Source: an uncultured Clostridium sp. (GTDB taxonomy: Bacteria > Bacillota_I > Bacilli_A > RF39 > UBA660). Taken from it: DNA of 64,000 nucleotides. Below the pieces are notes generated by a model, which worked only from the letters and a program-made list of their open reading frames with translations, was not told the DNA's origin and ran no database searches. Below, piece after piece: positions 19,278-46,186 of this stretch (within the stretch, counting starts at the first letter, position 1; each line of letters starts with the position of its first letter). Location: NCBI GenBank assembly GCA_902493795.1, contig CABUQZ010000009.1, positions 3,329 to 67,328 on the forward strand, written 5' to 3'. The position numbers and the translations under genes are program-made.

Positions 19278-20459
19278 ATGATAAAAGTTGGTGTTATTTT
19301 TGGTGGAGAAACAGTTGAACATGAGGTAAGTATTATTTCAGCTGTTCAAGCAATGAATAAATTAGATAATGAAAAGTATGAAATTATACCTATATATATT
19401 ACAAAAGAAGGTGAATGGTACACAGGTTCTGCCTTAAGAGAAATCGATATATATAAAGATATGGAAGTTTTAAAAAGATATACAAAAAATGTTGTTCTTT
19501 ATAAGAAAGATGATCGCTTTGTACTTCAGAAGAAAGGCTTTTTAAAGTCAATTGTTAATGATATAGATGTAATGCTTCCTGTAGTTCATGGAACTAATGT
19601 TGAAGATGGTGTATTACAAGGATATCTAAAGACAATTGGTATTCCTTTTGCAGGAAGTGGAGTAATGCCTAGTGCTGTTGGGCAAGATAAAGTAATACAA
19701 AAACAAGTATTCGAGTGCACTAATCTTCCAATTACAAAATATCATTGGTTTTATGATTGTGATTACAAACAAGATTCTGATGAAGTAATTAAAGAAATCG
19801 AAAAGAAATTGAATTATCCAATGATAGTAAAACCTGCTACTTTAGGTAGTAGTGTTGGAATATCTTCGGTAGAAGATAAAAAAGATCTAAAAAAAGCAAT
19901 TGAAGATGCTATACAATATGACACTAAGGTTGTTGTAGAAGAAAAAGTAGAAAACCTAGTTGAAGTAAATATAAGTGTTTTAGGAAACTATGAAAACTGT
20001 AATTTAAGTGAAATAGAAGAAGTTATAACAGATAATGCACTTCTTACCTATGAAGATAAATACACAGGTGGTAAAAAAGGAAGTTCAAAAGGAATGGCAA
20101 GTGCTTCTCGTATCATTCCAGCTAAAATTGATAAGAAACTAAAAGAAACAGTTGAAGATGTTGCTACAAAAGCTTATAGAGCTATGGGATTAAGTGGAGT
20201 ATCAAGAATAGACTTCTTAATCGATAAAGAGAAAAAGACAGTTTATATTAACGAGGTTAATACTTGCCCTGGAAGCTTAGCATTTTACTTATGGGATGCC
20301 AAAGGAAAAGACTTTACTCAATTATTAGATGATTTAATTAATTTAGCAATTAAAGATTTTAAGAAAGATAGAAAGAAAGTTAGAAGCTTCAAATCAAATA
20401 TTCTTAGTGGATATAGTGGCCTAAAAGGTGCCAAAGGAAAATTCGGAAAATTAAAATAA
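19278..20459 (+). CDS. ddl: D-alanine--D-alanine ligase
   Basis: VGVIFGGETVEHEVSIISA, ATP-grasp core, and NEVNTCPGSLAF. Confidence 0.9.
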   Translation: MIKVGVIFGGETVEHEVSIISAVQAMNKLDNEKYEIIPIYITKEGEWYTGSALREIDIYKDMEVLKRYTKNVVLYKKDDRFVLQKKGFLKSIVNDIDVMLPVVHGTNVEDGVLQGYLKTIGIPFAGSGVMPSAVGQDKVIQKQVFECTNLPITKYHWFYDCDYKQDSDEVIKEIEKKLNYPMIVKPATLGSSVGISSVEDKKDLKKAIEDAIQYDTKVVVEEKVENLVEVNISVLGNYENCNLSEIEEVITDNALLTYEDKYTGGKKGSSKGMASASRIIPAKIDKKLKETVEDVATKAYRAMGLSGVSRIDFLIDKEKKTVYINEVNTCPGSLAFYLWDAKGKDFTQLLDDLINLAIKDFKKDRKKVRSFKSNILSGYSGLKGAKGKFGKLK

Positions 20460-39635: not shown

Positions 39636-40241
39636 TTAATATTTATCTTCACAAATTGCAATAATATATCCCTCTAAATCATCAATTAATTTTAAAGAAA
39701 CACTATTATCACTACAGGAAATATCATTATAAGTTTTAATTTCAAATTGAACTTCTTTTATGTGATTTAAATTTGTTCCTTTCATTTTAAAATATGCTTC
39801 TTTTAAAGTATAAATTTCAAATAATCTCTTATATATATCATCGTTTCCTGACAAAATATATTCTTTTTCCTTGTCTGTTGCAAATTGATTTATAGAGTCT
39901 ATTGAAGTTGTTCTTATTTTTTCAATATCTACACCAACTTCATAATCTGATACTATAGCTATTACATATTGGTAAGAGTGACTAATATTATAAAATATTG
40001 GTTTGTTATTAATATATGGTTTTCCATTTTCATTTACTAAAAATTCTAGTTCTTCATAATTTGTCTTATAATTTTCCTTTAATAGCTCATCAAGTATAAT
40101 CTCTCCAGTAATAGAAGAGAGTTTTTTATCATCTTTTACATATTTTGCTATTCTATCTTTTTTTAAAGGGTAAAGTATATTATAAAACATATTTAAATAA
40201 TCTTTACTATAATAATCAAACCTTCTTATTTTATATTTCAT
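39636..40241 (-). CDS. Sfp-type 4'-phosphopantetheinyl transferase
   Basis: Motifs NGKPYI, YNISHS, VGVDIEKI and TLKEAYFK. Confidence 0.8.
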   Translation of the reverse strand: MKYKIRRFDYYSKDYLNMFYNILYPLKKDRIAKYVKDDKKLSSITGEIILDELLKENYKTNYEELEFLVNENGKPYINNKPIFYNISHSYQYVIAIVSDYEVGVDIEKIRTTSIDSINQFATDKEKEYILSGNDDIYKRLFEIYTLKEAYFKMKGTNLNHIKEVQFEIKTYNDISCSDNSVSLKLIDDLEGYIIAICEDKY

Positions 40242-40352
40242 AATAATATCTCCATATAGATATATAATACAATATTTTCTAAAACATAAGATACCATATT
40301 TGTTTTTGTGATATAATTCTTTTATAAGATTTAAGTGGGAGAAGTAAATATT

Positions 40353-41228
40353 ATGGGAAGAAAACTGTTTTGTGATATAAGTCCAACTTGTTATAAAATA
40401 TCTTCTGAAAAACAGATATTATTAAGAAAAGGTAAAGATTTATTAAAAAGAGCAAAAATTGCAAAAACTAAAAGTAAAGAAGAATTACCAAACATTGTAA
40501 AAAGTCATAGTTCTATTTTAGTAAGAAAACTTAATGGAGTTGATTTAAGACTTCAAGAAAATAAAGTAACTAATATAATGCTAGCTTGTAACAAAATTAA
40601 TGGAATAATAATTCATCCTGGAGAAACTTTTTCTTTTTGGAGAACTGTTGGAAAAGCTACAGAGAAAAAAGGTTATAAAAGGGGTCTAGTTATAAGTAGA
40701 AAGGGTATGACTTCTGGTTTTGGTGGAGGCCTTTGCCAAATGGCAAATATGATACACTGGCTAGTTTTAAATAGTCCTTTAGAAGTTACTGAACTACATC
40801 ATCATTCAGATGCTTTATTTCCAGATGAAAGAAGAAGAGTACCATTTGGAACAGGAACTTCAATTTGTTATAATTACGTAGACTATAGATTTAAAAATAA
40901 TACTGATCAAGATGTTCAAATATTGGTTTGGGTCGAAAATGGTGAACTATGTGGTGAACTACGAAGTGAAAGAGAATTTCCTTGTAGATATAAATTAATA
41001 GAAGAAAATCACCATTTCCAAAAAGAAGGCGAAGAATATTTTAGAATATCTCAAGTATACAGAATTGTAATAGATAGAAAAACAAACGAGGAATTATATA
41101 AAGAATTAATTCTAGATAATCATTCACGTGTTATGTATGATTATAACTTAATTCCCAAAGAGCAAATAAGGAATAATGAAGATGATAATAGAAAAAATTC
41201 AAAAAATAGTAGAAAAAAATCCAAATAA
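40353..41228 (+). CDS. VanW-family protein (short, VanB-cluster-like form)
   Basis: Core GFGGGLCQMANMIHWLVLNSPLEVTELHHHS is typical of VanW. The ATG at 40353 is preferred over the GTG at 40335. Confidence 0.75.
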   Translation: MGRKLFCDISPTCYKISSEKQILLRKGKDLLKRAKIAKTKSKEELPNIVKSHSSILVRKLNGVDLRLQENKVTNIMLACNKINGIIIHPGETFSFWRTVGKATEKKGYKRGLVISRKGMTSGFGGGLCQMANMIHWLVLNSPLEVTELHHHSDALFPDERRRVPFGTGTSICYNYVDYRFKNNTDQDVQILVWVENGELCGELRSEREFPCRYKLIEENHHFQKEGEEYFRISQVYRIVIDRKTNEELYKELILDNHSRVMYDYNLIPKEQIRNNEDDNRKNSKNSRKKSK

Positions 41229-42585
41229 AATCGCCTATAAAGTTAATAATGAAATAGTAACATATCAAGAATTATGGAGTTCTATCGAAAAGTATTCACA
41301 TCTTTTAAAATGTCAAGGAACATCTCCAGTTATAATTTATGGACATAAAGAAATAAATGTTATTAAATCAATATTATCTTGTCTTTTAGCTAACAGGACT
41401 TATGTTCCAATTGGATCTTGTACACCAATTTCTAGATTAGAGAAAATAGTTGAAATTACTAAATCAACATTAATATTAACAGATGAAGATATAAGTATTG
41501 ATAATATTTGTTCAACAAGTATTGAATTCTTAGATAAATTTGCTAGTTTTAAAGAAAATGAAATAGACAATAATATTGTTTATATGATTTTTACATCTGG
41601 AAGTACTGGAGAACCTAAAGGTGTTCCAATAAGTAAAGATAACTTAAATAATTTTGTAAACTGGATAAGTAACTTGAAACCTTTGTGCAATTACAAAGAT
41701 ATATGTGTTTTGAATCAAGCTAGTTTTAGTTTTGACTTAAGTGTTGCAGACTTTTATTATTCGATGTGTAATGGGCACACTTTAATCGCGTTAAATGGTG
41801 ATGTTCAAAATGATTTTGATGAAATATTTTCTATTATGCACGAAGTTACAGTAGCAGTTATGACTCCAACGCTTATGAAAATATGTTTGCTAAACAAAGA
41901 TTTTAATGAATTTAATTTTCCAAATTTTAAATGTGTATATTTTTGTGGAGAAACGCTAGAAAATAAAACAGTAAAGAAACTATTTGAATCTTTTCCAAAT
42001 TTAGAAGTAATAAATGCATATGGACCAACTGAGGCAACATCAGCAGTATCTGCAATAAATATTACGAAAGATATAGTAAATAACGAAGAATTACTTCCAG
42101 TAGGTTCTATTAATAATTTAGCAACTGATGTAGAAATAATCGATGATGAAATAGTTTTAAAAGGTCCAAGTGTTTTTAGTGGATACCTAGGAAATATGAA
42201 AGGTGGTTATTACAAAGAAGATAACCTTAATTGTTATAAAACTGGTGATATTGGTTTTATCAAAGATAATAAATTATATTGCAAAGGAAGAAAAGATAGT
42301 CAAATAAAATACAAGGGATATCGTATTGAATTAAATGATATTGAACAGAATATTTCAAAAATTAAAGGTGTTTTAGAGTGTGCAGTTGTTGCTAAATATA
42401 ACGAAGATAATGTTGTAAAAACAATAAAAGCTTTTGTAGTAGGAAACGTTGATGCAAGTTATATAAAAGAAGAATTGCAAAAAATAATTCCAGGCTATAT
42501 GATGCCTAGAACAATAAAAATATTAGATAAATTACCAATTAATCAAAATGGTAAAATAGATAGAAAGGCTTTAAGAGATTTATGA
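41176..42585 (+). CDS. DltA-like adenylation enzyme (D-alanine--carrier protein ligase family)
   Basis: Motifs MIFTSGSTGEPKGV, YGPTEAT, YKTGDIG, GRKDSQIKYKGYRIEL and GKIDRKAL. About 470 aa, as for DltA. Confidence 0.8.
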   Translation: MKMIIEKIQKIVEKNPNKIAYKVNNEIVTYQELWSSIEKYSHLLKCQGTSPVIIYGHKEINVIKSILSCLLANRTYVPIGSCTPISRLEKIVEITKSTLILTDEDISIDNICSTSIEFLDKFASFKENEIDNNIVYMIFTSGSTGEPKGVPISKDNLNNFVNWISNLKPLCNYKDICVLNQASFSFDLSVADFYYSMCNGHTLIALNGDVQNDFDEIFSIMHEVTVAVMTPTLMKICLLNKDFNEFNFPNFKCVYFCGETLENKTVKKLFESFPNLEVINAYGPTEATSAVSAINITKDIVNNEELLPVGSINNLATDVEIIDDEIVLKGPSVFSGYLGNMKGGYYKEDNLNCYKTGDIGFIKDNKLYCKGRKDSQIKYKGYRIELNDIEQNISKIKGVLECAVVAKYNEDNVVKTIKAFVVGNVDASYIKEELQKIIPGYMMPRTIKILDKLPINQNGKIDRKALRDL

Positions 42586-42824
42586 TAGGTAGTAAGATTA
42601 ATGTTAAAGATTTATTATATGATATATGTGAAGATGAATTAGTTTACAAAGATGACATTGATTTAGTAAGTAGTGGTTTATTAGATTCTTATGCCTTTAT
42701 CGAACTGTTTTCAAGACTAGAAGACTATGGAATAAATATTCAGCCAACAAGAATTGATCGTTCAAAGTTAAAAACAGTTAAAGGTATTGAAGCTTTGATT
42801 GAGGAATATTTAGATAAGAAATAG
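42582..42824 (+). CDS. DltC-like carrier protein (80 aa)
   Basis: ATGA overlap with the adenylation gene. Phosphopantetheine attachment motif GLLDSYAFIELF. Confidence 0.75.
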   Translation: MIGSKINVKDLLYDICEDELVYKDDIDLVSSGLLDSYAFIELFSRLEDYGINIQPTRIDRSKLKTVKGIEALIEEYLDKK

Positions 42825-42828
42825 AAAT

Positions 42829-42858
42829 AATATATCATATATTTGATATATTTTTTTT
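42829..42858 (+). terminator. Rho-independent terminator
   Basis: Perfect 9-bp stem aatatatca/tgatatatt with a 6-nt loop, then a T-run. Confidence 0.7.
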
Positions 42859-42942: not shown

Positions 42943-44478
42943 ATGAATGAATTATTAGAAAAAGAAAAAACTATTTTGGAAGTTATTTCTGATATTTTTA
43001 TTTTTATCATTATCATTATCTTTCCACTTATGGTAGATTCAACAGGATTTTTTCACATACTAGAATGTAAATGGTATTCATTTATTTTAATTGCTGGAGC
43101 ATATATTGGAATTACAATGGTTGTATTTTTATATTTTCTGATAATCAAAAAAATAAATTATTTTAAAAATACCAAACTATCGATTATTCAGTGGCTTGCT
43201 ATCTTATTTTTGATAGTTAATCTCATTTCTTGTTTTGCTTCTCCCTTTTTTAAGTCTTATGATTTATTTATAGGTGTTGGAAGAGGAGAAGGTCTTATTG
43301 TTAGTTCACTTTATATTCTCATTTTTTTATTTGTATCCTTATTTGCTAAATTTAAAATAAAGTACTTAGCGTACTTTTCAATTGCATCGATATTGATAAA
43401 TTTTATTGCTATTTTACAATATATTGGATTTAATCCTTTTAATATGTATCAAAAAGGAATAGGAACACACAATGTAAGTTTTATGGCAACAATAGGTAAT
43501 GTTGATTTTATTTCTGCAATGTATTGTATTCTTTTATCAGTTTCTTTTTCATCATTTGTATTTCTTGAAAACGACAAAAAACATATGAAGATAATTCATC
43601 TTTTATCAGTATTGATGGGATTCTTTATATTGGGAATAATCGATGTTCAAAGTGGAAAAGTAGCATTTTTGTTAACTTTAGTTATAATATCACCATTTAT
43701 AATATCAAATAATAAACGATTAAGTAGAGCAGTTATAATGCTTGCAACAATACTAATGTCATATTGTATTAACATAATTATTAATCCAGAATATCACTAT
43801 GATTTACAAAAGCTAAGTTTGTATTTTCAATTTAATTATATAGTTGTTTTATTTATAGCTATTTGTGCATTATTAATTTATTTAGCATATATACTTTATA
43901 AAACAAATTATGATATTTCAAAAAATAAAAAAATAATAAAATTTTTCTATTTTGGTTTAATTGTGTGTGGCATTTTGGGGTTGATAGTCTTATATTTTGG
44001 AAATTTTAAAAGTGGAATGCTATATGAGATTCATGAATTATTGCATGGAAATTTTGATGACAATTTTGGTACATATAGAGTATTTTTATGGAAAAGAACA
44101 ATAACACTAATTAAAGAGTTTCCAATTTTAGGATCTGGCCCTGATACGTTTGCGATAAGATTTATGGCAAAATATACATCTGATATTGCTGCTATTGGAC
44201 CTTTGACACTTAATGATACTGCTGCAAACATTTATTTAACAATGATAATTAATTTAGGAATTGTAGGTTTACTTAATTATCTGGTTTTTCTTTTCTTTCA
44301 AATAAAAAAAGGCATAAAAAATATAAATTGTTATTCTTCTATTTTGCTTATTGCATTTATATGTTACTTAATTCAATCATTCTTTAACTTATCAGTTGTT
44401 ATTGTTAGTCCTATGTTCTGGATTTTGATGGCTTTACATTATAATAGTTTAGAAACTAATGCTATTGACAAAAAATGA
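42943..44478 (+). CDS. Polytopic Wzy_C / O-antigen-ligase-family membrane protein
   Basis: More than 10 predicted TM helices. A large loop contains the family-typical GTYRVFLWKRTITLIKEFPILGSGPDTF. Confidence 0.7.
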   Translation: MNELLEKEKTILEVISDIFIFIIIIIFPLMVDSTGFFHILECKWYSFILIAGAYIGITMVVFLYFLIIKKINYFKNTKLSIIQWLAILFLIVNLISCFASPFFKSYDLFIGVGRGEGLIVSSLYILIFLFVSLFAKFKIKYLAYFSIASILINFIAILQYIGFNPFNMYQKGIGTHNVSFMATIGNVDFISAMYCILLSVSFSSFVFLENDKKHMKIIHLLSVLMGFFILGIIDVQSGKVAFLLTLVIISPFIISNNKRLSRAVIMLATILMSYCINIIINPEYHYDLQKLSLYFQFNYIVVLFIAICALLIYLAYILYKTNYDISKNKKIIKFFYFGLIVCGILGLIVLYFGNFKSGMLYEIHELLHGNFDDNFGTYRVFLWKRTITLIKEFPILGSGPDTFAIRFMAKYTSDIAAIGPLTLNDTAANIYLTMIINLGIVGLLNYLVFLFFQIKKGIKNINCYSSILLIAFICYLIQSFFNLSVVIVSPMFWILMALHYNSLETNAIDKK

Positions 44479-44521: not shown

Positions 44522-46186
44522 ATGTTAGAAAAATTTAAAGGGAATGTTATGAAACTTACATTGGGTGGAATAGCATTATTTATTTTCGGAATTTTTATAG
44601 GAATTCAATTAAACTCAGGAGCAATTGATTCGATTCAAGGATTTTTGTTTAATGTAACAAGAAACTCTAGCGCAACAAACTCAAACGCCACAAACTCAAA
44701 TGCCACAAACTCAAATGCCACAAACTCAAACGCAACGAATTCAAATGCAACGAATTCAAATGCCACAAACTCAAATGCAACGAATTCAAATGCCACAAAC
44801 TCAAATGCCACAAACTCAAACGCAGAAGATCCTAGTGCAACAGATAATATAATATATCTTGAAAGCTTTCATTTGATAACTAAAGAAGCAAATGCTGGAG
44901 ATACTGTTTACGTAAGTTTCGAAACAAGTGGTGCATGTCTTAATGGTATAACTGTCACATTAAAAAATCAAAAAAATAATACAACCTTTACTGCATTAGT
45001 AAAATCAATAGATGATGACCCATATATTATTTTACCAAGCAATTTATCTACATCTTCATACATTGTTACAGATGTATTACTAATTGGTTTGAACAGCGAT
45101 AAAACAACATTTAGTAAACATTACAACAATAATAGTATAGAATTAAAAGATACTGTCTCTGTTAAAGAAAAAGTTGTTGTTACCCCTGTAAAACTTAATA
45201 GTATTTCTATTGATCCAACTGATGTATCAGTGGGTAGTAAGATTAATGTCACATTTGATGTTAATAAATCTTTACAAAGCTTAAAACTAGAATTTAAATC
45301 TACAGATAATAAAACAATGGTTGTGTATGTTAAATCATTAACAAATAAACCATATTTTGAAATACCTACAACAACAGTTGGTGGAACATATTCATTATAT
45401 AGTGCTACATTAACTTCTTCTGATAGTACAAAAGTCTATACAACGAATGGATCTAATGGATCTTTAAAATTTAATTTTAATTCAAAACTTGTAATTAGTG
45501 ATGGAACAGAAACTTCATTTATATATAATAACGAAGATATTAATTCACAAATAATTACTAAGCTATATAATTCTAAAGAAAAAACAGAAATTACAATTAA
45601 TGCTGATTCAAACACAATAATTGATAAAGAATTATTTAATACAATTAAAGGAAAAGATAAAACTTTAATAATTAATCATAGTGATAATCAACTTGTATTT
45701 AATGGAAATGATATTAAGAATTCTAAAACTATAGATGTTAATATGTTAATCGAAGAAACTACAGCAAATGAAAATATTAGAAAATTAGTTTCAAAAGGTA
45801 TTATTGTTAACTTCCCAGATAATGGTAATCTTCCTGGAAATGCTTTAGTAAGAGTTAAAGCAACAGAAGATATTAATAAACTACTTGGTGATAAGATTTA
45901 TGTATATTTTTACAATGAATCTTCTAATAATTTCTCTGTTATAGCAGAAGATGTTAAGAAAAAAGATGACGGATATTATGAATTTACAATATCACATAAT
46001 TCTGATTATCTATTGGTAAATAAAAAAATAGATAGCAAATTAGTTGTATCTCAAAATATTGATAACGTAGTTTCATTCCAAAAAAGTAACGGTACATACT
46101 TGTTATTAATTGGAGTAGGAGTAGTTGTAGCTATATCATTAGCTATAGTTATCATAGTAGTTAGGAAAAAGAAAGAGATTAAATAA
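44522..46186 (+). CDS. Surface protein with N-terminal TM/signal anchor, (ATNSN)x10 low-complexity linker, beta-rich domains and C-terminal TM anchor
   Basis: N-terminal segment LTLGGIALFIFGIFIGIQL, then the repeat, then a C-terminal TM LLLIGVGVVVAISLAIVIIVV followed by RKKKEIK. Confidence 0.7.
   Translation: MLEKFKGNVMKLTLGGIALFIFGIFIGIQLNSGAIDSIQGFLFNVTRNSSATNSNATNSNATNSNATNSNATNSNATNSNATNSNATNSNATNSNATNSNAEDPSATDNIIYLESFHLITKEANAGDTVYVSFETSGACLNGITVTLKNQKNNTTFTALVKSIDDDPYIILPSNLSTSSYIVTDVLLIGLNSDKTTFSKHYNNNSIELKDTVSVKEKVVVTPVKLNSISIDPTDVSVGSKINVTFDVNKSLQSLKLEFKSTDNKTMVVYVKSLTNKPYFEIPTTTVGGTYSLYSATLTSSDSTKVYTTNGSNGSLKFNFNSKLVISDGTETSFIYNNEDINSQIITKLYNSKEKTEITINADSNTIIDKELFNTIKGKDKTLIINHSDNQLVFNGNDIKNSKTIDVNMLIEETTANENIRKLVSKGIIVNFPDNGNLPGNALVRVKATEDINKLLGDKIYVYFYNESSNNFSVIAEDVKKKDDGYYEFTISHNSDYLLVNKKIDSKLVVSQNIDNVVSFQKSNGTYLLLIGVGVVVAISLAIVIIVVRKKKEIK
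44672..44821 (+). repeat. Ten in-frame 15-bp tandem repeats encoding ATNSN
   Basis: Two synonymous unit types are interleaved: gccacaaactcaaa(t/c) and gcaacgaattcaaat, plus one gcaacaaactcaaac. Confidence 0.95.

Follow-up and report, generated by a model that had tools for sequence, protein, structure and literature searches.

A conserved VanW–adenylase–carrier protein cassette of gut bacteria and its possible role in the aminoacylation of an envelope precursor

We analysed a stretch of 64,000 nucleotides (contig CABUQZ010000009.1, positions 3,329 to 67,328 of the forward strand; in the following the window) from the genome GCA_902493795.1 of an uncultured Clostridium sp. Our subject is a group of adjoining genes which code for a Sfp-type 4'-phosphopantetheinyl transferase (PPTase), a short VanW-domain protein, a DltA-like amino acid adenylase and a small phosphopantetheine carrier protein. 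The last three form a cassette which is conserved in otherwise unrelated gene neighbourhoods. We propose that the VanW protein of this cassette takes over the aminoacyl group which the carrier holds as a thioester and transfers it to an amine of an envelope precursor bound to the membrane; to this reading we assign a probability of about 0.45. That VanW acts on the loaded carrier seems quite probable to us, and the narrower proposal that the acceptor is lipid II or another undecaprenyl-linked glycan is tentative. The host genome amounts to 1.64 Mb in 48 contigs and is 93.8% complete; the GC content of the window is about 26%. The genes are arranged as follows:

39636-40241, minus strand: Sfp-type 4'-phosphopantetheinyl transferase, divergent from the cassette (Pfam ACPS and AASDHPPT_N)
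40242-40352, no strand: spacer between the diverging PPTase and VanW genes with the presumed promoters (reading of the sequence)
40353-41228, plus strand: short-form VanW-domain protein of 291 aa, predicted to be cytoplasmic (Pfam VanW, 144.3 bits)
41176-42585, plus strand: DltA-like stand-alone amino acid adenylase of 469 aa (full-length AMP-binding and AMP-binding_C matches)
42582-42824, plus strand: phosphopantetheine carrier of 80 aa with the attachment residue Ser36 in a GLLDS motif (DltC-like match)

The first-pass annotation of this DNA had raised the possibility of a conserved VanW–adenylase–carrier module, and this module proved to be real. In all 12 non-streptococcal related loci which we read the VanW gene lies directly upstream of the adenylase gene, in unrelated neighbourhoods and also in distant loci with adenylases of 33–39% identity; in 11 of these loci the carrier gene lies on the downstream side of the adenylase gene. 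In a tree the 13 adenylases linked to VanW group as a single clade (support 96/99). Moreover, in two separate clusters VanW and adenylase are fused in frame into proteins of 744 and 748 aa, which are encoded on contigs from NCBI, ENA and JGI. VanW is the best conserved of the three proteins, being 80–85% identical where the adenylase is 65–70% identical. Adenylase homologues with 57–95% identity make up more than 120 clusters (at 90% identity) and are common in gut and rumen metagenomes; in a scan of genome contigs with the adenylase the matches listed were mostly streptococcal DltA and nonribosomal peptide synthetase (NRPS) loci. Full-text searches for papers pairing VanW with DltA, adenylation or a carrier protein yielded nothing beyond surveys of resistomes and genomes. 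The gene set is widespread and, as it seems, undescribed.

The phyletic distribution of the cassette points to an accessory, horizontally moving function. A cassette-type VanW is present in 2 of the 200 genomes sampled from the class of the host and was not found in G154, a genome of the same genus; only one of 60 other genera of the host family carries the cassette. Among 151 genomes of a clostridial order, six contain a VanW with at least 54% identity, and a short VanW of whatever kind reaches E ≤ 1e-60 in 22. Five clostridial genomes with the cassette encode no VanW domain other than that of the cassette. Over the 20 kb compared, the host and the cassette-less congener G154 have only murE in common. 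In one cassette genome (G253, contig C3; L100:9602-10451) the VanW frame consists of two overlapping open reading frames, owing either to a frameshift or to an error in sequencing, next to an intact adenylase and an intact carrier gene. The short VanW proteins of two further genomes (G188 and G040) are 45–48% identical, have no adjoining adenylase gene and are a sister group outside the cassette.

VanW had initially been described as a protein without established function. This statement is outdated, as L,D-transpeptidase activity was published in 2024: VanW domains are L,D-transpeptidases (LDTs) which have a Cys-His-Asp triad, cannot work without the Cys and presumably act through a thioacyl intermediate (Bollinger et al., PNAS 2024, PMC11348318). 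Their fold has no known relatives, and four of the seven foreign VanW proteins tested in that study were inactive (PMC11348318). According to a 2025 review the role of the "non-LDT homologs" of VanW is still open (PMC12729407). The chemistry reported in 2024 therefore permits a concrete mechanistic reading for the module. The cassette VanW matches Pfam VanW (PF04294) with 144.3 bits against a cut-off of 27, and its residues C128, H149, H151 and D177 are invariant across the cassette, van-type and other short forms. The catalytic His is H149 or H151, and the triad assignment covers both candidates. We found neither a transmembrane segment nor a signal peptide in the protein (the highest 19-residue hydropathy window, KD19, is 0.92), nor any match to the Pfam families PG_binding_4 or G5. 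Judging from these sequence features, the cassette VanW must work in the cytoplasm, because it has no membrane segment or signal peptide and because the adenylase needs ATP. The fusions lead to the same location, since in some organisms VanW is joined to the ATP-dependent adenylase and in others to the C-terminus of a MOP flippase.

The AlphaFold2 model of VanW reached a pLDDT of 77 and a pTM of 0.76. A Foldseek search of the PDB with this model gave no hit at E ≤ 0.001; the weaker matches were G5-like and confined to the beta part at the C-terminus. The cassette-type proteins are marked by two motifs missing from van-type VanW, namely the N-terminal RKLFCEISP..YKIS and the poorly modelled loop HHHSDALFPDERRRVPFGTGTS. 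The closest biochemical precedents are Ldt4 and Ldt5 of Clostridioides difficile (PMC11348318), which share with the cassette protein the Pfam VanW domain, the conserved Cys, His and Asp and a fold without relative in the PDB, and whose thioacyl-enzyme is resolved by an amine. They differ in being membrane-anchored, extracellular proteins with PG_binding_4 and G5 domains and in using a tetrapeptide stem as acyl donor, whereas the cassette VanW lacks an anchor, a signal peptide and a PG4 domain, occurs next to an ATP-dependent adenylase or fused with it, and likely receives its acyl group from a carrier thioester. With the VanW proteins of vanB and vanG operons the cassette VanW has the short, signal-less build in common, and its match covers positions 30–263 of the 271-position vanW-gen model. 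On the NCBIfam model NF033128 (vanW), however, it scores only 193.4 bits, under the cut-off of 365, no van genes adjoin it, and the van-type VanW of the host is only 27% identical to it. Van-type VanW proteins have neither the RKLFCEISP motif nor the RRRVPFGTGTS loop, and no adenylase or carrier partner.

This van-type VanW of the host belongs to a complete vanG-type glycopeptide-resistance operon on contig C25 (L094:1321-7920) with the gene order vanR-S-W-G-XY-T. Its vanW gene scores 374 bits (cut-off 365) and the vanG D-Ala–D-Ser ligase gene 525 bits (cut-off 495); the membrane and the catalytic part of VanT are encoded by separate genes. D-Ser and D-Ala-D-Ser are thus probable products of the host, which also has a housekeeping Ddl gene in the window (19278-20459).

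A profile search recovered 13,724 cluster representatives with a VanW domain; the short form accounts for 395 of them at E ≤ 1e-30. Other short VanW forms stand alone or are fused to YqeG-like HAD phosphatases or to VanR-like or VanY-like parts. Two proteins of 462 and 448 aa (P0261 and P0264) carry the short form behind a YqeG/PGP-phosphatase-like HAD domain, and other fusion representatives join it to response-regulator or D,D-carboxypeptidase parts. From their domain content, these HAD, response-regulator and D,D-carboxypeptidase fusions would show further cytoplasmic partnerships of VanW.

A structure model of the complex of VanW and carrier points to a direct interaction of the two proteins. 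The model scored 0.76 and the best of three controls 0.01; of 80 solved complexes 58 reach the mark of 0.76, as do 2 of 110 mismatched pairs, a calibration which is rough here because of our custom alignments. Three runs agreed in at least 65% of the contacts, and the partner pLDDT was at least 86. Reproduction of a known structure is unlikely to explain this result because the PDB contains no VanW structure. On the carrier the modelled interface consists of residues 35–40, which include the attachment site Ser36, residues 44 and 47–48, and residues 54–57 with the conserved PTRI. The VanW side is formed by residues 48 and 51–55, by W136 in the helix that also holds C128 and by the cassette-specific RRRVPF loop (160–165), and further by residues 196, 198, 200–202, 212, 214–215 and 245. 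On either partner this surface is conserved among the cassette proteins. The model thus supports binding of the Ser36 face of the carrier by VanW.

The adenylase and the carrier are related to DltA and DltC without being members of these families. The adenylase scores 424.7 bits on the NCBIfam DltA model NF003417 (cut-off 476) and 417.8 bits on TIGR01734 (cut-off 559.85), and a search of the whole host genome yielded no match to a DltA model above cut-off. Its best PDB sequence match is DltA (3e7w, 1e-79); on the AA-adenyl-dom model it reaches 229 bits, under the cut-off of 317. Likewise, the carrier stays far under the cut-offs of the DltC models (32.7 bits on NF003464, cut-off 68; 30.3 bits on TIGR01688, cut-off 52.35) and gives no match to Pfam PP-binding; its best PDB match is DltC (4bpg, 3.5e-6), with the alignment to DltC structures spanning the Ser site. 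The general features of a phosphopantetheine carrier are present, i.e., a length of about 80 aa, a helical fold (pLDDT ≥ 86 when modelled in the complex) and a co-occurring PPTase. D35 and S36 of the GLLDS motif are invariant across 12 carriers, and a cassette-specific motif PTRIDR is conserved.

For the substrate pocket we relied on the residues named in the structure paper of Staphylococcus aureus DltA (PMC8972799). In that enzyme the D-alanyl amino group is bound by Thr297, Asp197 and Val301, and the methyl cavity is built by a Leu, Met200 and Cys268, the Cys selecting the enantiomer (PMC8972799). Asp, Leu and Cys are invariant in 26 close relatives of our adenylase, in which Met is replaced by Ala and Val by Ser. 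Across the 13 VanW-linked adenylases the Cys is retained throughout, Met is changed to Ala in 12, and the position of Val301 is occupied by Ser (8) or Cys (5); in the same 13 proteins an 11-residue hairpin of DltA is deleted. Both the A10 Lys and the pocket Asp contacting the alpha-amino group are invariant. From this pocket the substrate is probably an alpha-amino acid, likely of D configuration, whose side chain exceeds a methyl group in size or polarity.

The cassette thus shares with the Dlt pathway (DltA, DltC, DltB, DltD and DltX) a stand-alone adenylase of DltA size which matches DltA structures best, a small carrier closest to DltC with the serine in GLLDS, and the pocket Asp and enantiomer-selecting Cys. 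It differs in the sub-cut-off scores of both proteins, the Met to Ala and Val to Ser or Cys exchanges, the loss of the hairpin, the lack of DltB, DltD and DltX, the Sfp-type PPTase in place of AcpS and the constant coupling to VanW. In streptococci the DltA gene is followed by that of the MBOAT protein DltB, unlike the cassette adenylase gene. The first-pass annotation had noted that neither an MBOAT nor a DltD gene is nearby, and this holds for the whole window. The search of the host genome which it had proposed found no DltD and a single MBOAT, scoring 167 bits against the DltB cut-off of 375 and encoded on another contig (C16) in a DUF4358-MBOAT-DHHW operon. With no dltB-dltD pair elsewhere in the genome and an adenylase pocket departing from DltA, the locus is not a canonical dlt operon. 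A split dlt operon is rejected as well: there is no DltD, the MBOAT gene is under the DltB cut-off and stands beside a DHHW gene, and an MBOAT is missing altogether from two genomes with the cassette, G132 (96% complete) and G201. Nor did we find in the cassette genes or their neighbours any C, TE or R domain that would indicate membership of an NRPS.

The PPTase is of the two-lobed Sfp type, with matches to Pfam ACPS (PF01648, 45.6 bits) and AASDHPPT_N (PF22624, 39.8 bits) within 201 aa; its best NCBIfam matches are AusB, HetI and AcpT, each under the equivalog cut-off. It is the only PF01648 match in the host genome, in which we detected neither a PF00550 acyl carrier protein nor an AcpS-type PPTase. 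Three other cassette genomes (G132, G201 and G205) each contain exactly one PPTase gene, adjoining the cassette, and no PPTase was found in the cassette-less congener G154. The genome with the frameshifted VanW has one PPTase gene, on another contig. Small-genome Bacilli such as the host and G154 may lack phosphopantetheine-dependent fatty acid synthesis. From gene content, the PPTase is evidently dedicated to the cassette in these small genomes. The earlier idea of a dedicated Sfp-type enzyme is thus strengthened by its being the only PPTase of the genome and is to be restricted in one respect: adjacency is limited to the small-genome lineage of the Bacilli, and in Clostridia the PPTase gene is not adjacent to the cassette.

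A second fusion connects the cassette-type VanW with the membrane. In a protein of 806 aa it forms the C-terminus of a SpoVB/MurJ-like MOP flippase, the VanW part being 62% identical over 274 residues without gaps and containing every cassette motif. The fusion occurs in at least six independent metagenome samples (L107:10001-12421; also L102, L108, L109 and L117–L119) and is followed by genes for an extracellular Transglut_core/Ig-like protein, an MBOAT and a DUF1574-like protein. In flippases of the MurJ type both termini are cytoplasmic. The flippase part is the orthologue of a host flippase encoded on contig C16 (53% identical over the full length and the clear best match in the host), whose gene lies immediately upstream of a FemAB-family gene. 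The DUF4358-MBOAT-DHHW operon mentioned above is divergent from this flippase-FemAB pair (L002:4505-11012, G000:C16), and the region is a second envelope-modification locus of the host genome.

Downstream of the carrier gene the window contains a hairpin and two genes for proteins with membrane segments:

42829-42858, plus strand: terminator-like AT-rich hairpin with a T8 run (sequence, folding energy)
42943-44478, plus strand: Wzy_C / O-antigen-ligase-like polytopic membrane protein (Pfam Wzy_C, 53 bits)
44522-46186, plus strand: doubly anchored surface protein of 554 aa with an (ATNSN)x10 repeat (translation, two hydrophobic ends)

Wzy_C-type genes stand beside the cassette in three genomes and in two gene orders, one in the window and the other in L006 and G132/L097. 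In L006 and L097 homologues of the 554 aa surface protein come after the Wzy_C gene. That Wzy_C is in general an obligatory partner of the cassette is rejected, as among the 60 genera sampled the adenylase is encoded in other genomes than the Wzy_C homologue; the association is kept as a lineage-specific link. The surface protein contains ten ATNSN repeats, which are rich in N-x-S/T, and together with Wzy_C it may be a glycosylation pair whose glycan could be the target of the cassette in this lineage.

Taken together we propose the following relay. The neighbouring Sfp-type PPTase would convert the 80 aa carrier into its holo form. The adenylase would then use ATP to activate a small alpha-amino acid, probably a D-amino acid somewhat larger or more polar than D-alanine, and load it as a thioester on the phosphopantetheine arm of the carrier. 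The signal-less VanW would dock at the serine face of the carrier, and Cys128 would take over the aminoacyl group by the same thioacyl route as in the VanW L,D-transpeptidases. Finally, VanW would hand the aminoacyl group to the amine of an acceptor, most likely an envelope precursor bound to the cytoplasmic side of the membrane such as lipid II or another undecaprenyl-linked glycan, which would afterwards be exported by a MOP flippase. What leads us to favour such a precursor is that VanW occurs fused to a flippase and that Wzy_C genes adjoin the cassette. We observed directly which genes are present, how far they are conserved, which fusions occur and how the PPTase is distributed among the genomes; the docking comes from the complex model, and we infer the acyl transfer to Cys128 and the identities of amino acid and acceptor.

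Transfer from a carrier by enzymes other than C domains has precedents. The transglutaminase-like amide synthase AdmF of andrimid biosynthesis, the aminoacyl shuttles SyrC and CmaE and BtrH of butirosin biosynthesis are carrier-dependent acyl or aminoacyl transferases, and AdmF, SyrC and CmaE transfer through an active-site Cys. As proposed here for VanW, these enzymes draw on a phosphopantetheine thioester and pass its acyl or aminoacyl group to an acceptor; their folds, however, are unrelated to VanW, and the literature we searched reports no carrier-dependent transferase role for a VanW domain. Peptidoglycan precursors are branched by FemXAB and MurM, which use aminoacyl-tRNA, and by the ATP-grasp D-Asp ligase. 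The hypothesised reaction resembles theirs in that an extra amino acid is placed on an amine of the precursor at the cytoplasmic side before flipping, and a FemAB-family gene adjoins the flippase gene whose orthologue is fused to VanW. The donor, in contrast, would be a carrier protein thioester instead of aminoacyl-tRNA or an acyl phosphate. It is a speculative and rather unlikely extension of our proposal that cytoplasmic proteins of the VanW fold are a new class of carrier-protein-dependent amide-bond-forming enzymes and provide a third route of precursor aminoacylation besides tRNA and ATP-grasp.

Several observations weigh against this proposal. The steps of the relay are predictions from sequence and model. 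The complex model gives a set of contact residues, and in the model of VanW the loop 150–176 beside the catalytic His has low confidence. The conserved pocket Cys is no proof of D specificity because streptococcal DltA has an Asp at this position. No adenylase or carrier gene was found within 10 kb of the flippase-VanW fusion, and the host has a second SpoVB-like flippase which scores higher on the SpoVB model than the one on C16. The link to Wzy_C can be broken, with a Wzy_C homologue but no cassette in one genome (G233) and a cassette but no Wzy_C in another (G253). In Clostridia nothing besides the three genes is conserved in the neighbourhood of the cassette, and the patchy distribution fits secondary metabolism as well as envelope modification.

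These last points lead to the alternative that the cassette is a minimal nonribosomal pathway for a diffusible small molecule, with VanW as an unconventional condensation or release catalyst that would form a dipeptide, a diketopiperazine or an aminoacyl-amine from a free amine or a second aminoacyl thioester. The stand-alone A domain and the carrier are served by a PPTase of the Sfp type, which is the usual one in secondary metabolism, the spread of the cassette looks patchy and horizontal (2 of 200 genomes in the host class, about 6 of 151 in a clostridial order), most loci have no conserved membrane partner, and the amine acceptors of VanW and other LDTs include free D-amino acids (PMC12729407). 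However, no exporter, tailoring or resistance gene accompanies the trio, the flippase-VanW fusion and the repeated linkage to Wzy_C point to the face of the membrane, and a VanW more conserved than the adenylase would be unusual if the product of the pathway varied. We therefore regard a small-molecule product as unlikely. VanW could also act by hydrolysis, either as a type II-like thioesterase which proofreads or releases the carrier, or as a cytoplasmic L,D-carboxypeptidase/transpeptidase which works on UDP-MurNAc-tetrapeptide and cooperates with adenylase and carrier. Cys-His-Asp enzymes can use water and LDTs double as L,D-carboxypeptidases (PMC12729407); the predicted docking on the carrier suits hydrolysis as well as transfer, and the other short VanW of the host is encoded in the vanG operon beside VanXY, a producer of tetrapeptide. 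Yet a futile cycle of loading and hydrolysis would leave the strict co-inheritance, the fusion to the adenylase and the top conservation of VanW unexplained, and an LDT-type reaction on the tetrapeptide requires no ATP-activated amino acid, which makes a hydrolytic role very unlikely in our view.

Finally, the carrier might feed a distant Dlt-like machinery in which an MBOAT and a DltD-like protein (DHHW or DUF1574) aminoacylate an extracellular polymer and VanW is an accessory. The DUF4358-MBOAT-DHHW operon on C16, the occurrence of MBOATs in 9 of 11 cassette genomes and the MBOAT and DUF1574-like genes behind the flippase-VanW fusion would fit such an arrangement. But MBOATs are common in Clostridia anyway, two genomes (G132, with its 96% completeness, and G201) possess the cassette and not one MBOAT, the host MBOAT is under the DltB cut-off (167 versus 375 bits) and no DltD was found. 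In addition, the carrier is far under the DltC cut-offs and has a conserved surface motif of its own, and the obligatory VanW as well as the VanW-adenylase fusions would stay unexplained. We consider a split Dlt-like pathway hardly credible and prefer the transfer by VanW from the loaded carrier to an envelope precursor.

The layout of the locus agrees in most points with the first-pass annotation. The PPTase, VanW, adenylase and carrier genes named there were all found at their positions, and the sequence bears out both the ATGA overlap that joins adenylase and carrier genes (42582-42585) and the 80 aa carrier with its GLLDS motif. The VanW reading frame opens at a GTG at 40335; the likelier start is the ATG at 40353, which is preceded by a ribosome binding site of the GGGAGAAG type. 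The reported overlap of 53 nt between VanW and adenylase genes is correct for the adenylase start at 41176 and shrinks to 47 nt with the better spaced alternative ATG at 41182. A promoter scan gave no more sites than shuffled controls, and no promoter was assigned in the intergenic region between the PPTase and VanW genes. The hairpin behind the carrier gene (42829-42852) has a 9 bp stem with a single G-C pair and is followed by the T8 run; folding of a stretch of 86 nt gave a minimum free energy of −13.7 kcal/mol (z = −3.0). It is not listed by a GC-based terminator scan. A terminator is plausible at this place and fits a genome of 26% GC, but with one G-C pair and the negative scan it was overstated to call it strong.

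The biochemical function of VanW domains has been known only since 2024, and the cassette makes the large cytoplasmic branch of this family, to which the 395 cluster representatives belong, accessible to tests. The predictions are an aminoacyl-carrier thioester as donor, Cys128 as nucleophile and a short list of acceptors. What our analysis newly adds is the mapping of the adenylase pocket, the VanW-carrier model, the phyletic pattern of the PPTase, the cassette genomes free of MBOATs and the flippase fusion. If the proposal is true, gut Firmicutes would have a new way to decorate their wall precursors, VanW would represent a new type of carrier protein condensation catalyst, and the VanW genes in vanB and vanG resistance operons would find a possible explanation as acting inside the cell.

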